From assembly GCA_041661545.1 (NCBI GenBank), contig JBAZUH010000001.1:544148-608147 (forward strand): DNA of 64,000 nucleotides, in the 5' to 3' direction. This document shows positions 58,325-63,869 of this stretch, piece by piece. Under the pieces are notes generated by a model. It had not been told where the DNA came from and searched no databases. It saw only the letters and a list, made by a program, of their open reading frames with translations. Numbering within the stretch: position 1 is the first letter of the stretch; each line of letters begins with the position of its first letter. The translations under genes were made by a program, and so were the position numbers. This DNA is from Candidatus Staskawiczbacteria bacterium (GTDB taxonomy: Bacteria > Patescibacteriota > Minisyncoccia > Minisyncoccales > Staskawiczbacteraceae).

Positions 58325-58599
58325 TGGCACAAGATGATTTTTTAAAAAATTTAACTGATCAGCAAGAGAAATTAGGTTTAAGAATTTTTGATTTGATTTT
58401 AGGTAGAATTTTTAAAAAAGTATATGCTAGGTTAGATGAAGCAGGAAAAGACTATATGGGTAAAGTTTTTTTAGTTGGTGATGATAAACAAAAAAATGAG
58501 TTTGTAGAAAAATTTATTTCTGATTTTCAGAAGTTGTTTGAAGAAGAGGCTAAAAACATAGAAGCAGATATTAAAGAAAAAATAGAACAAGTAGTTTAG
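58324..58599 (+). CDS. Hypothetical small helical protein
   Basis: 91 aa. The start overlaps the upstream stop (TAATG). Confidence 0.45.
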   Translation: MAQDDFLKNLTDQQEKLGLRIFDLILGRIFKKVYARLDEAGKDYMGKVFLVGDDKQKNEFVEKFISDFQKLFEEEAKNIEADIKEKIEQVV

Positions 58600-58631
58600 G
58601 TTGTCTTTTAGATAAGTTTATGATAAAGTTT

Positions 58632-58655
58632 AAGACACAAAAAGTGTCTTTTTTA
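58632..58655 (+). terminator. Rho-independent terminator
   Basis: AAGACAC-AAAAA-GTGTCTT followed by TTTT. Confidence 0.75.
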
Positions 58656-58690
58656 AATAAATATTATTAATTTAAAAAAAATATATAATT

Positions 58691-59647
58691 ATGAAAATAC
58701 AAGACATATTTCAATTAGCAATAAAAATGGGCATAGACGCTGATTTTAGAGGCAGAGAAGGTGTAGAGAAATTATTAAAACGTAAAAAAGAGTTTTTTGA
58801 TAATCTTTCACAAAAAGATAAAGAAGAGTTTGACCAAGAAGCTTTGACAAACCCCTATATGGACTCGGGAGTTTATAATATTTCAGAAGACAAAGAGGTC
58901 AAAAAAGTTTTAGTGGGCATTGATATTGAGCCAGCAGAAATATTGCTAGCCAAGCAGTTGGGCGATATTGATTTGGTTATTGCTCACCACCCAGAGGGTA
59001 AAGGGTTGGCACAATTGGCAGATGTTATGCATTTACAAGCAGATGTTTTAAGCCAATATGGAGTGCCAATTAATATTGCAGAATCTTTAATGAAAATTAG
59101 AATTTCTGAAGTAGCCAGAGGAGTTAATGCTATCAACCATCAAAGAACCATTGATACAGCTAGAATTTTAGGAATTAATTTTATGAATTCCCATACGCCA
59201 TGTGATAATTTGGTTGCACGATACTTAAAAAATCTTATAGAAGAAAAAAAACCGGAAACTGTGGGAGAAATTACTTCTTTGTTAAAAGAATTACCAGAAT
59301 ATAAAGAAGCAATGAAAATTGGAGTGGGGCCTAAAATATTTGTAGGAAGCCCAGAAAATAGGGTTGGTAAAATTGCTGTTTCCGAAATTACAGGAGGCAC
59401 AGAAGGCTCAATAAAAATGTATGAAAAAATGTCACAAGCTGGCATTGGCACAGTAATTGCAATGCACACCTCCGAAGAACACAGAAAAGAAGCTGAAGCA
59501 GCTCACCTTAACATTATAATTGCAGGCCACATGTCATCGGATTCTTTAGGAGTTAATTTGCTTATGGATGAATTAGAAAAACAAGGAATTGAAATTGTAC
59601 CATGTTCAGGATTTACTAGATGTTCAAGAGTTCACCCAGTTAAATAA
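58691..59647 (+). CDS. NIF3/YbgI-like (DUF34) dinuclear-metal family protein
   Basis: 318 aa with DLVIAHHPEG, NSHTPCDN and IIAGHMSSDSLG. Confidence 0.55.
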   Translation: MKIQDIFQLAIKMGIDADFRGREGVEKLLKRKKEFFDNLSQKDKEEFDQEALTNPYMDSGVYNISEDKEVKKVLVGIDIEPAEILLAKQLGDIDLVIAHHPEGKGLAQLADVMHLQADVLSQYGVPINIAESLMKIRISEVARGVNAINHQRTIDTARILGINFMNSHTPCDNLVARYLKNLIEEKKPETVGEITSLLKELPEYKEAMKIGVGPKIFVGSPENRVGKIAVSEITGGTEGSIKMYEKMSQAGIGTVIAMHTSEEHRKEAEAAHLNIIIAGHMSSDSLGVNLLMDELEKQGIEIVPCSGFTRCSRVHPVK

Positions 59648-59697
59648 ATTCTGGCTTAGCCAGAATTTAAAATCCGAAGGATTTTATTTAACCGGGG
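59635..59697. repeat. AT-rich three-way-junction element B3 (supplies the stop codon of the NIF3-like gene)
   Basis: CCCAGTTAAATAAA ... TTTATTTAACCGGG closing stem enclosing TTCTGGC-TTA-GCCAGAA and AAAATCC-GAA-GGATTTT. Confidence 0.6.
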
Positions 59698-59731
59698 TAA
59701 ATAAATAATTTTTTGAGGGGATATTTATACA

Positions 59732-59759
59732 TTGACATTGAGTTTTTTTAGAATAAAAT
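59732..59759 (+). promoter_or_regulatory. Promoter of a candidate small RNA
   Basis: TTGACA, 16 nt, TAAAAT. Confidence 0.5.
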
Positions 59760-59764
59760 AGATA

Positions 59765-59936
59765 GTTATGAGGGGGTGCGAGATTCATCTCAAGGACATA
59801 ATATTTTGTAACGAAAGAGGAACAAGTATATACCTAAATTCATTGTCCGAATTAGGCTCGAGAAAAATCCAATATCGTTGCAAATTATTTACCCCCTCCA
59901 CAAAGTCCGCTCCGACGCACGTCGGAGCGGTTTTTG
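59765..59936 (+). ncRNA. Candidate small RNA of about 170 nt, family unknown
   Basis: Bounded by the promoter above and an intrinsic terminator (CCGCTCCGAC-GCAC-GTCGGAGCGG plus TTTTT, 59907-59935). Long-range pairing GAGGGGGT/ACCCCCTC and hairpin CCTAA(A)TT/AATTAGG. Confidence 0.4.
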
Positions 59937-59949
59937 ATTGTTATTTGGC

Positions 59950-59978
59950 TTGACATAATTTGAATTCTATTTTAAGCT
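59950..59978 (+). promoter_or_regulatory. Promoter of the GC-rich membrane protein gene
   Basis: TTGACA, 17 nt, TAAGCT. Confidence 0.5.
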
Positions 59979-60018
59979 GTACGTAGTCCTTTGAATCATG
60001 AACTAAGAAGAGAACAAC

Positions 60019-60651
60019 ATGAAAAAGATAAACAGCATTGCATTAGCCGTTGCATCGGCTTTGATTTTATGTGCCCAAGGCCAAGTCGAGGAGAAGGTAG
60101 AAATAGATCAAAAAGGCAATGTGAGAGTCGTCCCGATAGAACCGGTTTGGCGAGATCTGACTCCAGCCGAGCAGATAGCTCGCAGTCAACCGGGCATGCC
60201 TGTGCCCATTAATCTCGCGACCAGATGGGAGAGGAATTGGAAAGAGGACTTCTTCCATGCAATCGAGGTTGAACTCAGTTCCGAAGTGCTGATCTTTAGC
60301 GAGGACCAGATTAAGCCTATTAGCTCTGAAACACGAAAGGTCCAGAGAAAGAGTTTTTTGTGGAATATTCCACTGACGTTTTTGGCAATCAGTCTGCTGG
60401 CAACTAGCAATGCTTTACGTTGGAAGGGCATGCGCGTCTCCGCCGCTTTCTCCGTTCTCTTCGCTGCCATTAGCACCTTTATCAGTGCTTTCTTCGCTCT
60501 TAGCTCCCTTGCTATCGTAGTTGGCCTTTTGGGCGTTATTGTTGTTGTTCTGGTCACTATCTCTGCTTTCGTCGACGATGATGTGAAAAGTTATAGGATG
60601 TTGAGTATTTTTTCCTATATTCTGCTGTTGGCAAGGCTCTTTGTTCTCTGA
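60019..60651 (+). CDS. Secreted/membrane protein, elevated G+C
   Basis: 210 aa. Signal peptide (..ASALILCAQG), soluble domain of about 90 aa, then 3-4 TM helices. Confidence 0.5.
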   Translation: MKKINSIALAVASALILCAQGQVEEKVEIDQKGNVRVVPIEPVWRDLTPAEQIARSQPGMPVPINLATRWERNWKEDFFHAIEVELSSEVLIFSEDQIKPISSETRKVQRKSFLWNIPLTFLAISLLATSNALRWKGMRVSAAFSVLFAAISTFISAFFALSSLAIVVGLLGVIVVVLVTISAFVDDDVKSYRMLSIFSYILLLARLFVL

Positions 60652-60663
60652 CATTTCTAGTTT

Positions 60664-60697
60664 GCCCCAAGGAATTTTCTTTGCGGGCTCTTTTTTT
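60664..60697 (+). terminator. Terminator of 60019-60651
   Basis: GCCCCAAGGAA ... TTCTTTGCGGGC imperfect stem followed by TCTTTTTTT. Confidence 0.55.
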
Positions 60698-60720
60698 GCA
60701 AAAATATTTTTTTGATTGCT

Positions 60721-60749
60721 TTGAGAGCGTTTTTTTGATAGAGTAAAAT
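60721..60749 (+). promoter_or_regulatory. Candidate promoter for 60780-63330
   Basis: TTGAGA, 17 nt, TAAAAT. Confidence 0.45.
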
Positions 60750-60779
60750 ATAGTAATTATTATTAATTTTTTAAAAATT

Positions 60780-61115
60780 ATGCCTGCAAAAAAGAAAATA
60801 ATAAAAAAAGTTTCTCGAAAAATTAAGTCAAAAATAAAGATTAAAATTAATGTTAAAAGCAAAGCCGAAGGAAAACCTGTTGGTAAAATAACTCATTATT
60901 TTTCTAATATAGATGTAGCGGTTATTAATTTGGTTAGCCCCTTAAAAGTAGGAGAAAAAATAAGAATAATAGGGGGTCAAGAAACTGATTTTGAGCAAAA
61001 AGTAGGGTCTATGCAAGTTGAGCATAAAGATGTAAAAGTTGGCAAAAAAGGAGAGTCTGTTGGAATAAAGATTGAAGAAAAAGTTCATGAAGGTTACAAA
61101 GTTTACAAAGTTTAA
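60780..61115 (+). CDS. Small protein with Lys-rich N-terminus and an EF-Tu domain-2-like beta-barrel
   Basis: 111 aa. GKITHYFSNIDVAVINLVSPLKVGEKIRIIG...VGKKGESVGIKI resembles translation-factor domain II. Confidence 0.45.
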   Translation: MPAKKKIIKKVSRKIKSKIKIKINVKSKAEGKPVGKITHYFSNIDVAVINLVSPLKVGEKIRIIGGQETDFEQKVGSMQVEHKDVKVGKKGESVGIKIEEKVHEGYKVYKV

Positions 61116-61126
61116 AATTTAAAATA

Positions 61127-62098
61127 ATGATAGAAAATATAAAAGAAGAAATTGAAGATAAAATTATAGATTATATTAATTCTAGCGTAACTGGTAGATT
61201 GATAGTTTTTAAGCCCGATAAAAAGGGGATGGATGACTATTTAGTTGTAGAAAGAAGAGGAAAATATAAAGAAGATAAAATATATCTTGAAATTAATAGT
61301 TTAGTTTTGCCAGCCCAAAATAAAAATTTTATAAAAGATTTTTCGCAAGAAAAGTTTAAAGCAGACAAAAACTTTTATTTAATTTTTGCTTACTTTGACG
61401 AAGTTACACAAAAAATAAATGATTATATATGGATTATTCCATCATTAAAGTTTCAAGATATAGCGGAGGTTGTAAAACATTCCAACAACAAGAAGTCTCT
61501 AAGGTTTGAGTCTTCTTCTAATTTTAAAGATAAAAATAAATATTCTGAATTCTTAATAAACATAAAAGATTTAGGAGATATATTATTAGGGGCTTTAAAA
61601 GACAAAAAGCAAGCTAAATTTCAGGCAGTTGATTTTGATGGTAAAAGTTTGATAAATTTAGAAAATTTAAAAGAATTTTTATGTAATGCTCGTCAAAATA
61701 CTTATGCAGCAAACTCATCGGGAATAGATAATCCAAGGCTTTTAGAATCTAAACAGCTAGAATTTCAAAAGGGGGAATATTTTTATAGGGATGTTTATTT
61801 TACTGGTAAAACAAAATTTATAGGCCAAGAAATTATTTATCAAGATTTAAAGCCTATTTGGGGTATGAATTATATAGGAAAAGCTATTGGCAAATTAGAA
61901 ACAAATTTTTTAAAAGAATCTTTAATGGAGTTATCTGATAAATGTCGTCTTGGACAAGAATGTGAATATAATAAAAGAGAATATAAATATAAAGACAAGG
62001 GGGTTGGAGATGTTAGTGAATTTTCTGGTAAAGAGGAAATTCTCTTAAATGAAAAAAGTATTTATAAATTAGATTATCAGGGCGGTTTAATCTCATGA
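61127..62098 (+). CDS. Two-domain protein: unassigned N-terminal domain plus DUF5680-like C-terminal domain
   Basis: 323 aa. The C-terminal part (FLCNARQNTYAA.., PIWGMNYIG, FLKESL, FSGKEEI, YQGGLI) matches my recollection of DUF5680. ATGA overlap with the next gene. Confidence 0.45.
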   Translation: MIENIKEEIEDKIIDYINSSVTGRLIVFKPDKKGMDDYLVVERRGKYKEDKIYLEINSLVLPAQNKNFIKDFSQEKFKADKNFYLIFAYFDEVTQKINDYIWIIPSLKFQDIAEVVKHSNNKKSLRFESSSNFKDKNKYSEFLINIKDLGDILLGALKDKKQAKFQAVDFDGKSLINLENLKEFLCNARQNTYAANSSGIDNPRLLESKQLEFQKGEYFYRDVYFTGKTKFIGQEIIYQDLKPIWGMNYIGKAIGKLETNFLKESLMELSDKCRLGQECEYNKREYKYKDKGVGDVSEFSGKEEILLNEKSIYKLDYQGGLIS

Positions 62099-63330
62099 AG
62101 TTTATAGCAGATTTTCATATACACTCAAAATATTCTAGGGCAGTGTCTCCTTTAATGAATTTAGAAAATTTAGCTAAGTGGGCAGAAATAAAAGGAGTAA
62201 AAGTTTTAGGCACAGGTGATTTTACTCACCCTAAATGGCTTGGCGAAATAAAAAAACAACTAAGCCCCGCAGAGCGGGGTCTTTTTTCCCGCCACAGCGG
62301 GATCCCGCCAAAGACGGGAAAGCTTGGCAGTAAAACTCGTTTTATTCTTACAACTGAGATAAGTTGTATATATAAAAAACTAGGAAAAGTTAGAAAAATT
62401 CATATTATTGTTTTTGCTCCATCAATAGCCACGGTAGAAAAAATAAACTTAGCATTATCTAAAATTGGCAATTTACATTCAGACGGTAGGCCAATTTTGG
62501 GGCTAGATGCAAAAGAGTTAGTAAAGATTGTTTTAAATATAGATAAAAATTGTTTAATAGTGCCAGCTCATGCCTGGACACCATGGTTTTCTATTTTTGG
62601 CTCAAAGTCAGGATTTAATTCTTTAGAGGAGTGTTTTGAAGAATATACAAAATATATTTATGCAATTGAAACTGGGTTGTGTTCAAATCCTGCTATGAAT
62701 TGGAGAATATCTAAACTAGATAAAATTACTTTAATTTCTAACAGTGATGCACACTCTCTTGCTAAAATTGGACGGGAAGCAAATGTTTTTGATACGGAGC
62801 TGAGTTATAAGGGGATTGTTGAGGCCATTAAGTTTCCAGAAAAAAAGTTTTTATATACTATAGAATTTTTTCCTGAAGAAGGTAAATATCATTATGATGG
62901 TCATCGTAATTGTGGTATAAGTTTAGCTCCTCAACAATCTAAAAAGAATAATAATATATGTCCTAAATGCAACAAACCCTTGATAATAGGGGTTTTAAAT
63001 AGGGTAGAAGAATTGGCTGATAGGCCAGAAGGATTTTTGCCTAAAAAAGGAATTCCATTTAAAAGTTTAATTCCTTTAAATGAAATAATAGCTGAATCAA
63101 TTGGCGTTTCAACAGCATCAAAAAAAGTTATAAAATATTATGATAATTTAATAAAAAATTTAGGACCAGAGTTAGAAATATTATTAGAATCAACAGAAAA
63201 AGATATAAAAGAAAAATCTTTACCAGAAATTGCCAAAGGGGTTATAAAAATGCGCAAGGGGCGCGTTTTTATTGAGCCAGGATATGACGGTGTTTATGGA
63301 AAAATTAATATTTTATTTAATAATGGTTGA
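62095..63330 (+). CDS. PHP-domain endonuclease Q-like protein
   Basis: 411 aa with FIADFHIHSKYSRA, PAHAWTPWF, SNSDAHS and Zn-ribbon CPKCNKP. Confidence 0.72.
   Translation: MKFIADFHIHSKYSRAVSPLMNLENLAKWAEIKGVKVLGTGDFTHPKWLGEIKKQLSPAERGLFSRHSGIPPKTGKLGSKTRFILTTEISCIYKKLGKVRKIHIIVFAPSIATVEKINLALSKIGNLHSDGRPILGLDAKELVKIVLNIDKNCLIVPAHAWTPWFSIFGSKSGFNSLEECFEEYTKYIYAIETGLCSNPAMNWRISKLDKITLISNSDAHSLAKIGREANVFDTELSYKGIVEAIKFPEKKFLYTIEFFPEEGKYHYDGHRNCGISLAPQQSKKNNNICPKCNKPLIIGVLNRVEELADRPEGFLPKKGIPFKSLIPLNEIIAESIGVSTASKKVIKYYDNLIKNLGPELEILLESTEKDIKEKSLPEIAKGVIKMRKGRVFIEPGYDGVYGKINILFNNG
62287..62319. repeat. GGATCC-core double-hairpin element (copy 3), in frame in the EndoQ-like gene
   Basis: TCCCGCCACAGCGGGATCCCGCCAAAGACGGGA, encoding SRHSGIPPKTG. 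The first 24 nt are identical to copy 2. Confidence 0.85.
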
Positions 63331-63392: not shown

Positions 63393-63869
63393 ATGGAAGA
63401 TAAAATTTTTTATATAACTAGAGAAAAGTTGCAAGAGTTAAAAAAAGAACATGAACAGCTGGTGGAGTTTGAGCATAAAAAAGCTTTAAGTGAAGAAATG
63501 CCCAAAATTTTTGAATCGGAAGATTTGAATCCCGAATTTGTAAGTTTTCAAGAAGACATAGGTTTTTTAAGGTCTAGGATTGATGAACTAAGGCATATTT
63601 TAGATAATCATAAATTAATAAAAAATCCGGGGAAAAATTTTAAAGATACAGTTGGATTGGGGTCTAAAGTTAAAATAGACGTAAATGGTCAAAAAGATGA
63701 ATTTACAATTGTGGGCACTCTTGAAGCAAATCCAGCTTTAGGAAAAATTAGTAATGAATCTCCAGTTGGTAAGGCTTTATTAGGTCATAAAATTGGAGAC
63801 GAAATTGTTGTTTCTTCACCAGTAAAGACAACATATAAAATTAGAAACGTAAAATACGAATTAAGTTGA
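63393..63869 (+). CDS. greA: Transcription elongation factor GreA
   Basis: 158 aa with an N-terminal coiled coil and C-terminal VGLGSKV...ISNESPVGKALLGHKIGDE. Confidence 0.9.
   Translation: MEDKIFYITREKLQELKKEHEQLVEFEHKKALSEEMPKIFESEDLNPEFVSFQEDIGFLRSRIDELRHILDNHKLIKNPGKNFKDTVGLGSKVKIDVNGQKDEFTIVGTLEANPALGKISNESPVGKALLGHKIGDEIVVSSPVKTTYKIRNVKYELS

Follow-up and report, generated by a model that had tools for sequence, protein, structure and literature searches.

In the 64-kb (64,000-nt) stretch of Candidatus Staskawiczbacteria DNA analysed here (the window, whose positions serve as coordinates throughout), the region downstream of a NIF3-like gene carries a gene for a structured small RNA (sRNA), read on the + strand and followed, on the same strand, by a gene for a small beta-barrel protein. 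This sRNA founds an uncatalogued RNA family, present in Staskawiczbacteria, Nealsonbacteria and related Parcubacteria only, as far as sampled, and its core has P1 as the closing helix, P2 as a variable hairpin, and P3, P4 and P5 as a long arm. As an overall reading we consider it fairly probable that this is a stand-alone, constitutively terminated and structured sRNA, in which a pseudoknot and a homodimer are strongly suggested, and which would act in trans in a ribonucleoprotein (RNP) with the barrel protein.

The sRNA unit, its fold and its homologues

The family comprises 113 homologues, of which 39 come from sources reached through NIF3 loci (the window included), 68 from metagenomes and 6 through the neighbouring protein. 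For the NIF3-anchored set, 80 loci of GTDB species were fetched and searched by nhmmer and then by a covariance model. Exactly one sRNA copy was found in each of the 39 sources, always on the + strand relative to NIF3 and with scores of 50-157 bits, while the reverse strand gave at most 32 bits across the set (138.9 bits on the + strand vs 18.6 on the - strand in the window). The NIF3 loci closest to the window all belong to Staskawiczbacteria. The metagenome set stems from a pattern scan of Joint Genome Institute (JGI) metagenomes, which returned 90 stretches, 80 of them listed as loci; 68 were confirmed by the model and 62 are distinct. As the search pattern had the pseudoknot bases fixed, this set is uninformative on pseudoknot variation. 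The last 6 members are divergent and lie in loci fetched through the barrel protein. A search of the literature found no description of this sRNA.

An earlier note, made by reading the sequence, had proposed a stand-alone sRNA of about 170 nt at this place and had advised comparing the intergenic region in related genomes. This comparison recovered the same unit, with promoter, core and terminator conserved together in the 113 homologues. In the window its parts are as follows.

59732-59759, + strand: sigma-70-type promoter of the sRNA (TTGACA at 59732-59737, 16-nt spacer, TAAAAT at 59754-59759)
59764-59901, + strand: structured core, 138 nt
59907-59935, + strand: intrinsic terminator (10-bp stem at 59907-59930 with 8 G-C pairs, 4-nt loop, TTTTT at 59931-59935)

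Both transcription signals had been described in the earlier note, and both are present as it had placed them. The promoter scores 11/12 and is the top site in the 2.7 kb covered by the promoter scan (58500-61200). Promoter-like matches as a class are not enriched in this region (13 found vs 10.2 expected), and the case for the promoter therefore rests on its conservation. Among homologues it aligns column by column and at a fixed distance to P1, with scores of 9/12 or more in 99 of 103 members and of 11/12 in 83 of 103; the -35 element is TTGACA in 86, the spacer measures 16 nt in 94 and the -10 element is TAAAAT in 69 of these 103. On the other side of the core, a hairpin of -6 kcal/mol or lower followed by at least four T residues was found in 85 of 106 homologues. 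The sequence of the terminator stem diverges freely among species with its pairing kept, and the terminators average -11 kcal/mol. Against shuffled sequence, the minimum free energy (MFE) z-score is -4.4 when the terminator is left out and falls to -6.8 when it is included. Judged from these signals, transcription would start at about 59765, giving a transcript of about 171 nt (59765-59935, + strand) with its 3' end at the terminator.

Within the core we assigned helices with RNAalifold and explicit counts of pairs, in which "cells" stands for alignment pair cells.

59770-59778, + strand: 5' strand of P1, GAGGGGGUG, pairing with 59890-59898 (8/9 pairs change on both sides; 90% of cells paired)
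59780-59791, + strand: P2 hairpin, GAGA-UUCA-UCUC (4/4 pairs covary; 97.9% of cells paired)
59794-59798, + strand: junction J2/3, GGACA, putative 5' half of a pseudoknot with the P5 loop
59800-59814, + strand: 5' strand of P3, pairing with 59875-59889 (10/15 pairs covary; many G-U)
59819-59821, + strand: 5' strand of P4, GGA, pairing with UCC at 59868-59870 (3/3 pairs covary)
59834-59855, + strand: P5 hairpin, CCUAAAUUC / GAAUUAGG, 59834-59841 with 59849-59855 around the 7-nt loop AUUGUCC
59844-59848, + strand: UGUCC in the P5 loop, putative 3' half of the pseudoknot
59868-59898, + strand: 3' strands of P4 (59868-59870), P3 (59875-59889) and P1 (59890-59898)

In a MAFFT alignment, which was not fitted to the structure, 91.5% of cells are paired, compared with 39-57% when the partners are slid against each other, and 33 of the 50 pairs change on both sides. 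The covariance-model alignment of 39 members gives 92.8% of cells paired vs 39-54% after sliding, with 36 of 50 pairs changed on both sides. None of 500 shuffles reached the observed values. P5 is paired in 99.2% of cells, and 4 of its 7 pairs covary. The long-range pairing that the earlier note had seen between GAGGGGGT (59770-59777) and ACCCCCTC (59891-59898) corresponds to P1 and is supported by covariation. We take the + strand to be the transcribed one because G-U pairs are frequent and the model scores are strand-asymmetric.

The most conserved bases of the whole RNA are AAGGACA in J2/3 and UUGUCCGAA in the P5 loop, together with the apical UUC/GAA of P5. GGAC(A) of J2/3 probably pairs with (U)GUCC of the P5 loop to form a pseudoknot, to judge from the pattern of conservation. 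Its core, GGAC/GUCC, is invariant in 112 of 113 members, and in the remaining one (L050) it reads GGUC/GACC, both sides being changed and the pairing retained. The six divergent members anchored on the protein have GGAC/GUCC again, so that variation is seen in L050 only. This loop-to-junction pairing had escaped the earlier note, as had two covarying palindromes that are described below.

P2 is the variable element of the core. It is missing in L003, L021 and L057, and several metagenome members likewise have none. In four loci it is expanded by 20-165 nt, which marks it as an expansion hot spot (L024:15808-16111, L039:4719-4898, L010:6188-6345, L036:10994-11160); in L024 about 165 extra nucleotides lie within an extended P2 stem of the L039 type.

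An open reading frame (ORF) of 61 codons with an ATG start (59768-59953) does exist in the window, and one could thus suppose that the region encodes a 61-aa protein and not an RNA. We give this explanation a negligible chance. The ORF runs across the terminator, 47 of 107 homologues lack its ATG, and where the ATG is present the frame mostly spans 3-38 codons; 18 members read ATG AGG GGG TGA at this place. Any frame stays open across the core in only 9 of the 107 members, indels are not multiples of three, and the substitutions are those of compensatory base pairing. The earlier note had regarded the ORF as fortuitous and had named a conserved 61-aa frame as one finding that would overturn its RNA; no conserved frame was found among the 107 homologues, and the ORF is indeed fortuitous.

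The same note could not match the RNA by eye to 6S, signal recognition particle (SRP), tmRNA or RNase P RNA and had recommended an Rfam scan. With Rfam 15, nothing in the window matches at the gathering score besides 4 tRNAs elsewhere in it. For 59764-59901 nothing credible was found at E<=10 (the best overlap is PsrR1 with E=5.5), no match appeared at E<=1 on 7 homologous loci, and 4 related loci gave only tmRNA, elsewhere, at the gathering score. The sRNA is thus none of those four RNAs by Rfam, and no known family accounts for it.

These searches also bear on the idea that the sRNA is a known RNA that has diverged strongly, either 6S RNA or the RNA antitoxin of a type III toxin-antitoxin (TA) system, which we regard as very improbable. 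6S RNA (RF00013) does resemble it in length (about 170-190 nt, here about 170), in its strong housekeeping promoter and in its paired 5' and 3' ends, which recall the closing stem P1. However, the sRNA has no large two-sided central bubble: the P1/P3 junction is one-sided, being made of P2 and J2/3, with 0-2 nt on its 3' side, and the core appears to be pseudoknotted. As to type III TA systems, the order of an RNA, a terminator and a small protein gene is that of ToxIN-type loci, but no tandem repeats were found in the sRNA, the protein is a barrel like domain 2 of EF-Tu, and PADLOC gave no defence-system match at the locus. The locus is, moreover, single-copy, syntenic and housekeeping-like, and the pattern scan found 0 sRNA matches in viral contigs. 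An origin from a phage or a defence system was rejected on the viral-contig and PADLOC results.

Another candidate role that we dropped is that of a Shine-Dalgarno (SD) mimic or anti-SD sponge. The consensus of junction J3/4, GAAGGAGG, looks like a perfect SD sequence; the idea was abandoned because the motif varies (AAGAGG, AGUAGG, AAAAGG, AACAAG) and lies half within P4. An SD-like motif precedes only 2 of 50 window genes (ORFs of at least 150 aa), whose leaders are A/U-rich, and translation in this host apparently initiates without SD pairing.

Palindromes on both sides of P5 and a possible homodimer

P5 is bracketed by two short palindromes.

59826-59833, + strand: palindrome 1, GUAUAUAC, 8 nt, abutting P5 on its 5' side (4/4 self-pairs change on both sides)
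59857-59862, + strand: palindrome 2, CUCGAG, 6 nt, on the 3' side of P5 (3/3 self-pairs change on both sides)

Each of them is self-paired in 92% of cells. Counted together in the GTDB set, 92.3% of the self-pair cells are paired, compared with 38-50% after sliding, both partners change in 7 of 7 pairs, and covariation scores 0.664 vs 0.335+-0.024 in shuffles. The independent metagenome set gives very similar values, with 92.8% paired vs 29-65% after sliding and a change of both partners in 6 of 7 pairs. Either site occurs in 15 different palindromic variants. At palindrome 1 they include GCAUAUGC, GCGUACGC, GGACGUCC, GCAGCUGC, GUGUACAC and AUGCGCAU, and further members have GGAUAUCC and UGCUAGCA. 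Those of palindrome 2 include CCCGGG, CCUAGG, UUUAAA, CUUAAG, CUGCAG, UUCGAA and CUUUAAAG; UCGCGA and CUCUAGAG also occur there, but are non-palindromic by the fixed-column count. The central dinucleotide of each palindrome is self-complementary or wobble, which leaves a loop of zero nucleotides.

A palindrome with zero loop cannot fold on itself, and a duplex between two copies of the RNA is therefore the simplest reading. Compensatory changes have preserved the self-complementarity of the palindromes, and homodimerisation, which this covariation strongly suggests, explains it best. The duplexes, palindrome 1 with its counterpart and palindrome 2 with its counterpart, would join two RNA copies and bracket both P5 hairpins, so as to form a C2-symmetric homodimer. 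Pairing of the two palindromes with each other, or a lengthening of P5 by them, was rejected, since on inspection their sequences are not complementary. In the design of a dimer assay, palindrome 1 is broken by changing GUAUAUAC to GUAUAAAC and palindrome 2 by changing CUCGAG to CUCGUG.

It might be argued that the sRNA stands alone but acts as a monomer, with the palindromes being either alternative local conformations or the recognition site of a dimeric protein, and with the link to the barrel gene being inherited synteny. We find this unlikely, although several observations can be cited in its favour. The case for a dimer is drawn from covariation, the majority variants GUAUAUAC and CUCGAG dominate the counts, and the fraction of perfect palindromes expected under independence of columns is already about 0.43-0.46. 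On the other hand, the roughly 15 sequences per site are all self-complementary, the G+C-rich GCGUACGC, GGACGUCC, GCAGCUGC, CCCGGG and CUGCAG among them, and this holds for their central dinucleotides as well, wobble pairs included. A loopless palindrome of 6-8 nt is unable to form a hairpin, which speaks against local conformations, and a protein site would be expected to preserve its sequence and not symmetry alone.

Natural RNAs are known to homodimerise by palindromic pairing (PMC12990946). The examples are the ribozymes HYER1 and HYER5, derived from group IIC introns, and ARRPOF RNA, and dimers of OLE RNA belong here as well (PMC12990946, PMC12286853). The sRNA shares with them self-complementary segments and, if it dimerises, symmetric RNA-RNA contacts; here the symmetry is kept by compensation and at two sites. 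It differs in size, its core measuring 138 nt compared with 577-637 nt in OLE and HYER1, and has no Rfam similarity to them. Unlike in HYER and OLE, two short palindromes directly abut one hairpin, and while those dimers have been observed, that of the sRNA is deduced.

The neighbouring barrel protein and the choice between leader and stand-alone RNA

Two protein genes follow the sRNA in the window, and only the second of them belongs to the conserved arrangement.

60019-60651, + strand: 210-aa predicted membrane ORF (N-terminus signal-peptide-like, C-terminal half hydrophobic)
60780-61115, + strand: conserved neighbour gene, encoding the 111-aa barrel protein, downstream of the sRNA on the same strand

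The barrel-protein gene follows the sRNA on its strand in 39 of 39 GTDB loci (directly adjacent in 35), in 60 of 63 sRNA-anchored metagenome loci and in 6 of 6 protein-anchored loci. Three loci are exceptions, namely L119 and L129, which carry insertion sequence (IS) insertions, and L117. In the former two, transposase or IS-like genes on the opposite strand follow the sRNA terminator directly and displace the barrel gene (L119:488-1761, L129:228-1535). In L117:294-551 the sRNA is followed by a second promoter, an AAAGGUC motif and then an 85-aa, extremely Lys-rich ORF without the barrel. NIF3, in turn, is directly upstream of the sRNA in only 16 of 44 loci, and in two Nealsonbacteria genomes the NIF3 locus (L060, L064) has no sRNA while sRNA and barrel gene sit together on another contig (L171, L173). 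The sRNA and the barrel-protein gene thus stay together through genome rearrangements, and the conserved partner, which the earlier note had not recognised, is neither NIF3 nor the membrane ORF but the barrel gene. That the sRNA remains with the barrel gene after the NIF3 context has been lost also argues against inherited synteny as proposed together with the monomer.

The 210-aa ORF is absent at this position in 35 of 39 GTDB loci; it has no tblastn match in the 68 metagenome loci and no match in Pfam, NCBIfam or PADLOC. Specific to this lineage, it has been inserted between the sRNA and the gene that usually adjoins it, and is no part of the conserved unit. Among the genomes sampled only this one has it, and L053 and L068 carry a different ORF of 182-193 aa at the same place.

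The barrel protein consists of a Lys-rich N-terminal tail and a beta-barrel of about 80 residues and is highly conserved. A hypothetical protein from a Staskawiczbacteria metagenome-assembled genome matches it with 100% identity, and Pfam PF03144 gives E=6.6e-6, below the cut-off. Searches with the window protein found 490 homologues, and those with the L050 protein 2057; each of these is unnamed or labelled "putative protease" or "EF-1alpha", and many match Pfam PF16325. In the barrel, the AlphaFold (AF2) model has a predicted local distance difference test (pLDDT) score of about 90. According to Foldseek, the nearest structure is the C-terminal domain of the U32 peptidase (4he6), with TMt 0.84-0.90 and a root-mean-square deviation of 1.3-1.4 A, and the next ones are Pbp11 of Pyrococcus abyssi (7anu), PF0907, EF-Tu domain 2 and IF2 C2.

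Pbp11, a stand-alone barrel, is a tRNA binder and makes use of its N-terminal part for this (PMC9540759). What the window protein has in common with it and with the U32 C-terminal domain (PF16325) is a barrel of about 80-90 residues of the EF-Tu-domain-2 type; moreover, as Pbp11 needs its N-terminal part for binding tRNA, so the window protein has its Lys-rich N-terminal tail. The identity to both is, however, only 12-24%, and the window protein is bacterial, from the Candidate Phyla Radiation (CPR), whereas Pbp11 is archaeal and stands in a proteasome context that is absent here. By its structural relatives the protein is a candidate RNA binder, and it is plausible, by this analogy, that the adjacent sRNA is its ligand. 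We propose an RNP because these relatives bind tRNA or RNA 3' ends. A dimeric RNA would then act in trans, probably as an RNP with the small basic barrel protein encoded beside it, in a role that may be linked to translation or tRNA.

The constant order of sRNA and barrel-protein gene can be read differently, namely as a cis-acting 5' leader of this gene, be it an autoregulatory protein-binding attenuator or a riboswitch, with the terminator as the element under regulation and the gene expressed by read-through. Attenuating leaders such as riboswitches and ribosomal-protein leaders likewise consist of a structured domain and a terminator upstream of a consistent gene. One and the same gene family always follows the sRNA on its strand, a terminator lies between them, a few loci (for example L014 and L005) have a short gap and no clear second promoter, and only 16 of 35 spacers pass a strict promoter rule. 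We nevertheless think a leader quite improbable. No alternative pairing that co-varies between core and terminator was found, and the terminator arms of a locus pair with its core no better than swapped ones (-6.6 vs -6.7 and -7.3 vs -7.5 kcal/mol; p=0.43 and 0.15), on which ground an antiterminator or riboswitch platform was rejected; the terminator stems vary freely while the core is fixed. The 16 spacers with promoter-like sites after the terminator amount to 46%, compared with 19% in shuffles, and clear TGnTATAAT boxes lie between the terminator and the small gene in 6 of 6 Nealsonbacteria-like loci. The sRNA is also fully conserved despite insertions downstream of it, be they of another gene (the window, L053, L068) or of an IS element (L119, L129), and palindromes that imply intermolecular pairing are unexpected in an attenuator.

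The earlier note had argued in the same direction from a second promoter at 59950-59978. Its -35 element is a perfect TTGACA, but the -10 element, TAAGCT, is weak (3/6), and the scan did not call the site; in relatives a putative promoter, often with TGnTATAAT, does sit between the sRNA terminator and the next gene. With no co-varying antiterminator and with what looks like a separate promoter in many relatives, the element is therefore better described as a stand-alone sRNA than as a leader.

A base-pairing action of the sRNA on the leader of the small gene was rejected as well, as own and swapped combinations do not differ (-27.05 vs -27.48 kcal/mol, p=0.48). In relatives, a motif AAAGGUC(G/A) stands a few bases after the -10 element of the small gene's own promoter (L171:1965-1975, L012, L019, L031, L038, L041) and is probably at or near the 5' end of its mRNA; it is missing before 60780 in the window. 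It also occurs in loci without the sRNA and resembles AAGGAC of the sRNA, in which no complement of AAAGGUC was found. As a general signal AAAGGTC was discarded, for the window has 6 copies on both strands vs about 4 expected per strand, and they are not upstream of genes.

Several points weigh against a stand-alone, dimeric RNA that works with the barrel protein. Its transcription is deduced from conserved signals and its dimer from covariation. The pseudoknot has invariance and one compensatory event (L050) on its side, and its fifth pair is inconsistent. About 8% of the palindrome cells are unpaired in fixed columns; most of these cases, though not all, are register shifts of 1 nt. Some orthologues of the barrel protein have no basic tail, and the adjacency of the two genes could reflect cis regulation or mere synteny, not a complex. 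Finally, 12 of the 51 GTDB loci with the barrel gene, including that of the close relative L002, have no sRNA directly upstream, and the barrel protein therefore does not strictly need a neighbouring sRNA gene. This last finding cuts both ways, as it favours a monomeric RNA linked by synteny and disfavours a leader.

The surroundings of the locus contain further features.

59647: stop codon of the NIF3-like gene, upstream of the sRNA
59649-59686, + strand: two adjacent short hairpins directly 3' of the NIF3 stop, read from the sequence (UUCUGGC-UUA-GCCAGAA and AAAAUCC-GAAG-GAUUUU)
L171:1639-1711, L172:1596-1668, L173:1436-1508 and L174:1581-1653: tRNA-Arg(CCU)
L027:11028-11268, L051:1180-1417, L023:10965-11204, L046:12166-12381 and L022:1427-1597: a second conserved unit

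The two hairpins are probably the terminator of the NIF3 transcript, which the terminator scan overlooked because stems or T tracts are weak. The sole Rfam near-match to 59649-59686 is a generic two-hairpin element on the minus strand (E=0.0076, under the gathering score). The tRNA-Arg(CCU) genes belong to Nealsonbacteria-like genomes, where they precede the sRNA by about 50-260 nt and share its strand. The second conserved unit is found between NIF3 and the barrel gene in five species and is unrelated to the sRNA. Its C/A-rich transcript (CCCCAACCCCCUCAA) measures about 170 nt and is served by a CTTGACA promoter, which has a -10 element, and by a terminator; the unit also includes a DnaA-box-like GTTATCCACAG and has no Rfam match. 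In L022 it stands in tandem with the sRNA, and in the other four it takes the place of the sRNA.

Downstream of the barrel gene, 61127-63330 of the window encodes a DUF5680 protein (PF18931, E=4e-25) and then a TIGR00375/PHP-domain protein with a CxxC zinc-finger-like motif, which we take to resemble the endonuclease Q family; next comes GreA, at 63393-63869. Many relatives have a DUF5680 protein of only 117-186 aa, compared with 323 aa in the window.

Related RNA and protein pairs, and what the sRNA may mean for its hosts

Orphan sRNAs such as the raiA-motif RNA adjoin one characteristic gene and have their own promoter and terminator. The raiA motif is, like the RNA described here, a stand-alone and highly structured RNA of 150-200 nt that usually lies 5' of one gene family linked to translation; it is pseudoknotted, as the sRNA probably is too. 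The sRNA differs from it in its unrelated sequence and fold, in its occurrence in Parcubacteria of the CPR, in its neighbour gene and in its palindromes. Pairs of an RNA gene and a gene for a small RNA-binding protein are also familiar, tmRNA (ssrA) with SmpB and Y RNA with Rsr being examples. In these, too, the RNA gene adjoins a small protein gene, and the fold in question comes from the world of translation-factor barrels. The sRNA, however, has no tRNA-like domain, tag ORF or Rfam match, and its candidate partner is a barrel like those of the U32 C-terminal domain, EF-Tu domain 2 and Pbp11, and not like SmpB or Ro.

A bolder version of our reading is that the RNA represents a so far unknown class among small bacterial RNAs, an obligate symmetric homodimer joined through the two palindromes around a pseudoknotted P5 hairpin, with a dedicated RNP partner in the barrel of the EF-Tu-domain-2/U32-C type, and that the two would form a lineage-specific particle of CPR bacteria, linked to translation or tRNA and without a counterpart in model organisms. 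We regard this as possible but rather doubtful.

Very few non-coding RNAs specific to the CPR have been described, and our literature searches found none. The hosts have minimal genomes and cannot be cultured alone. As more than 100 species-level lineages have kept an sRNA gene with a near-consensus promoter, this gene is probably important to the hosts. Its 138-nt core is a small and well-defined target for structure determination, supported by covariation; since most RNA homodimers known are large RNAs, the sRNA is also one of few candidates for a small natural one. Because the sRNA is paired with a conserved but unstudied barrel protein, both molecules are approachable by experiment, through binding assays and cryo-electron microscopy. 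For annotation of Parcubacteria genomes, the family supplies a seed for a covariance model in a region that is now left blank or mis-called as a hypothetical ORF. For the biology of these bacteria, the sRNA could reveal a new particle associated with translation or tRNA.

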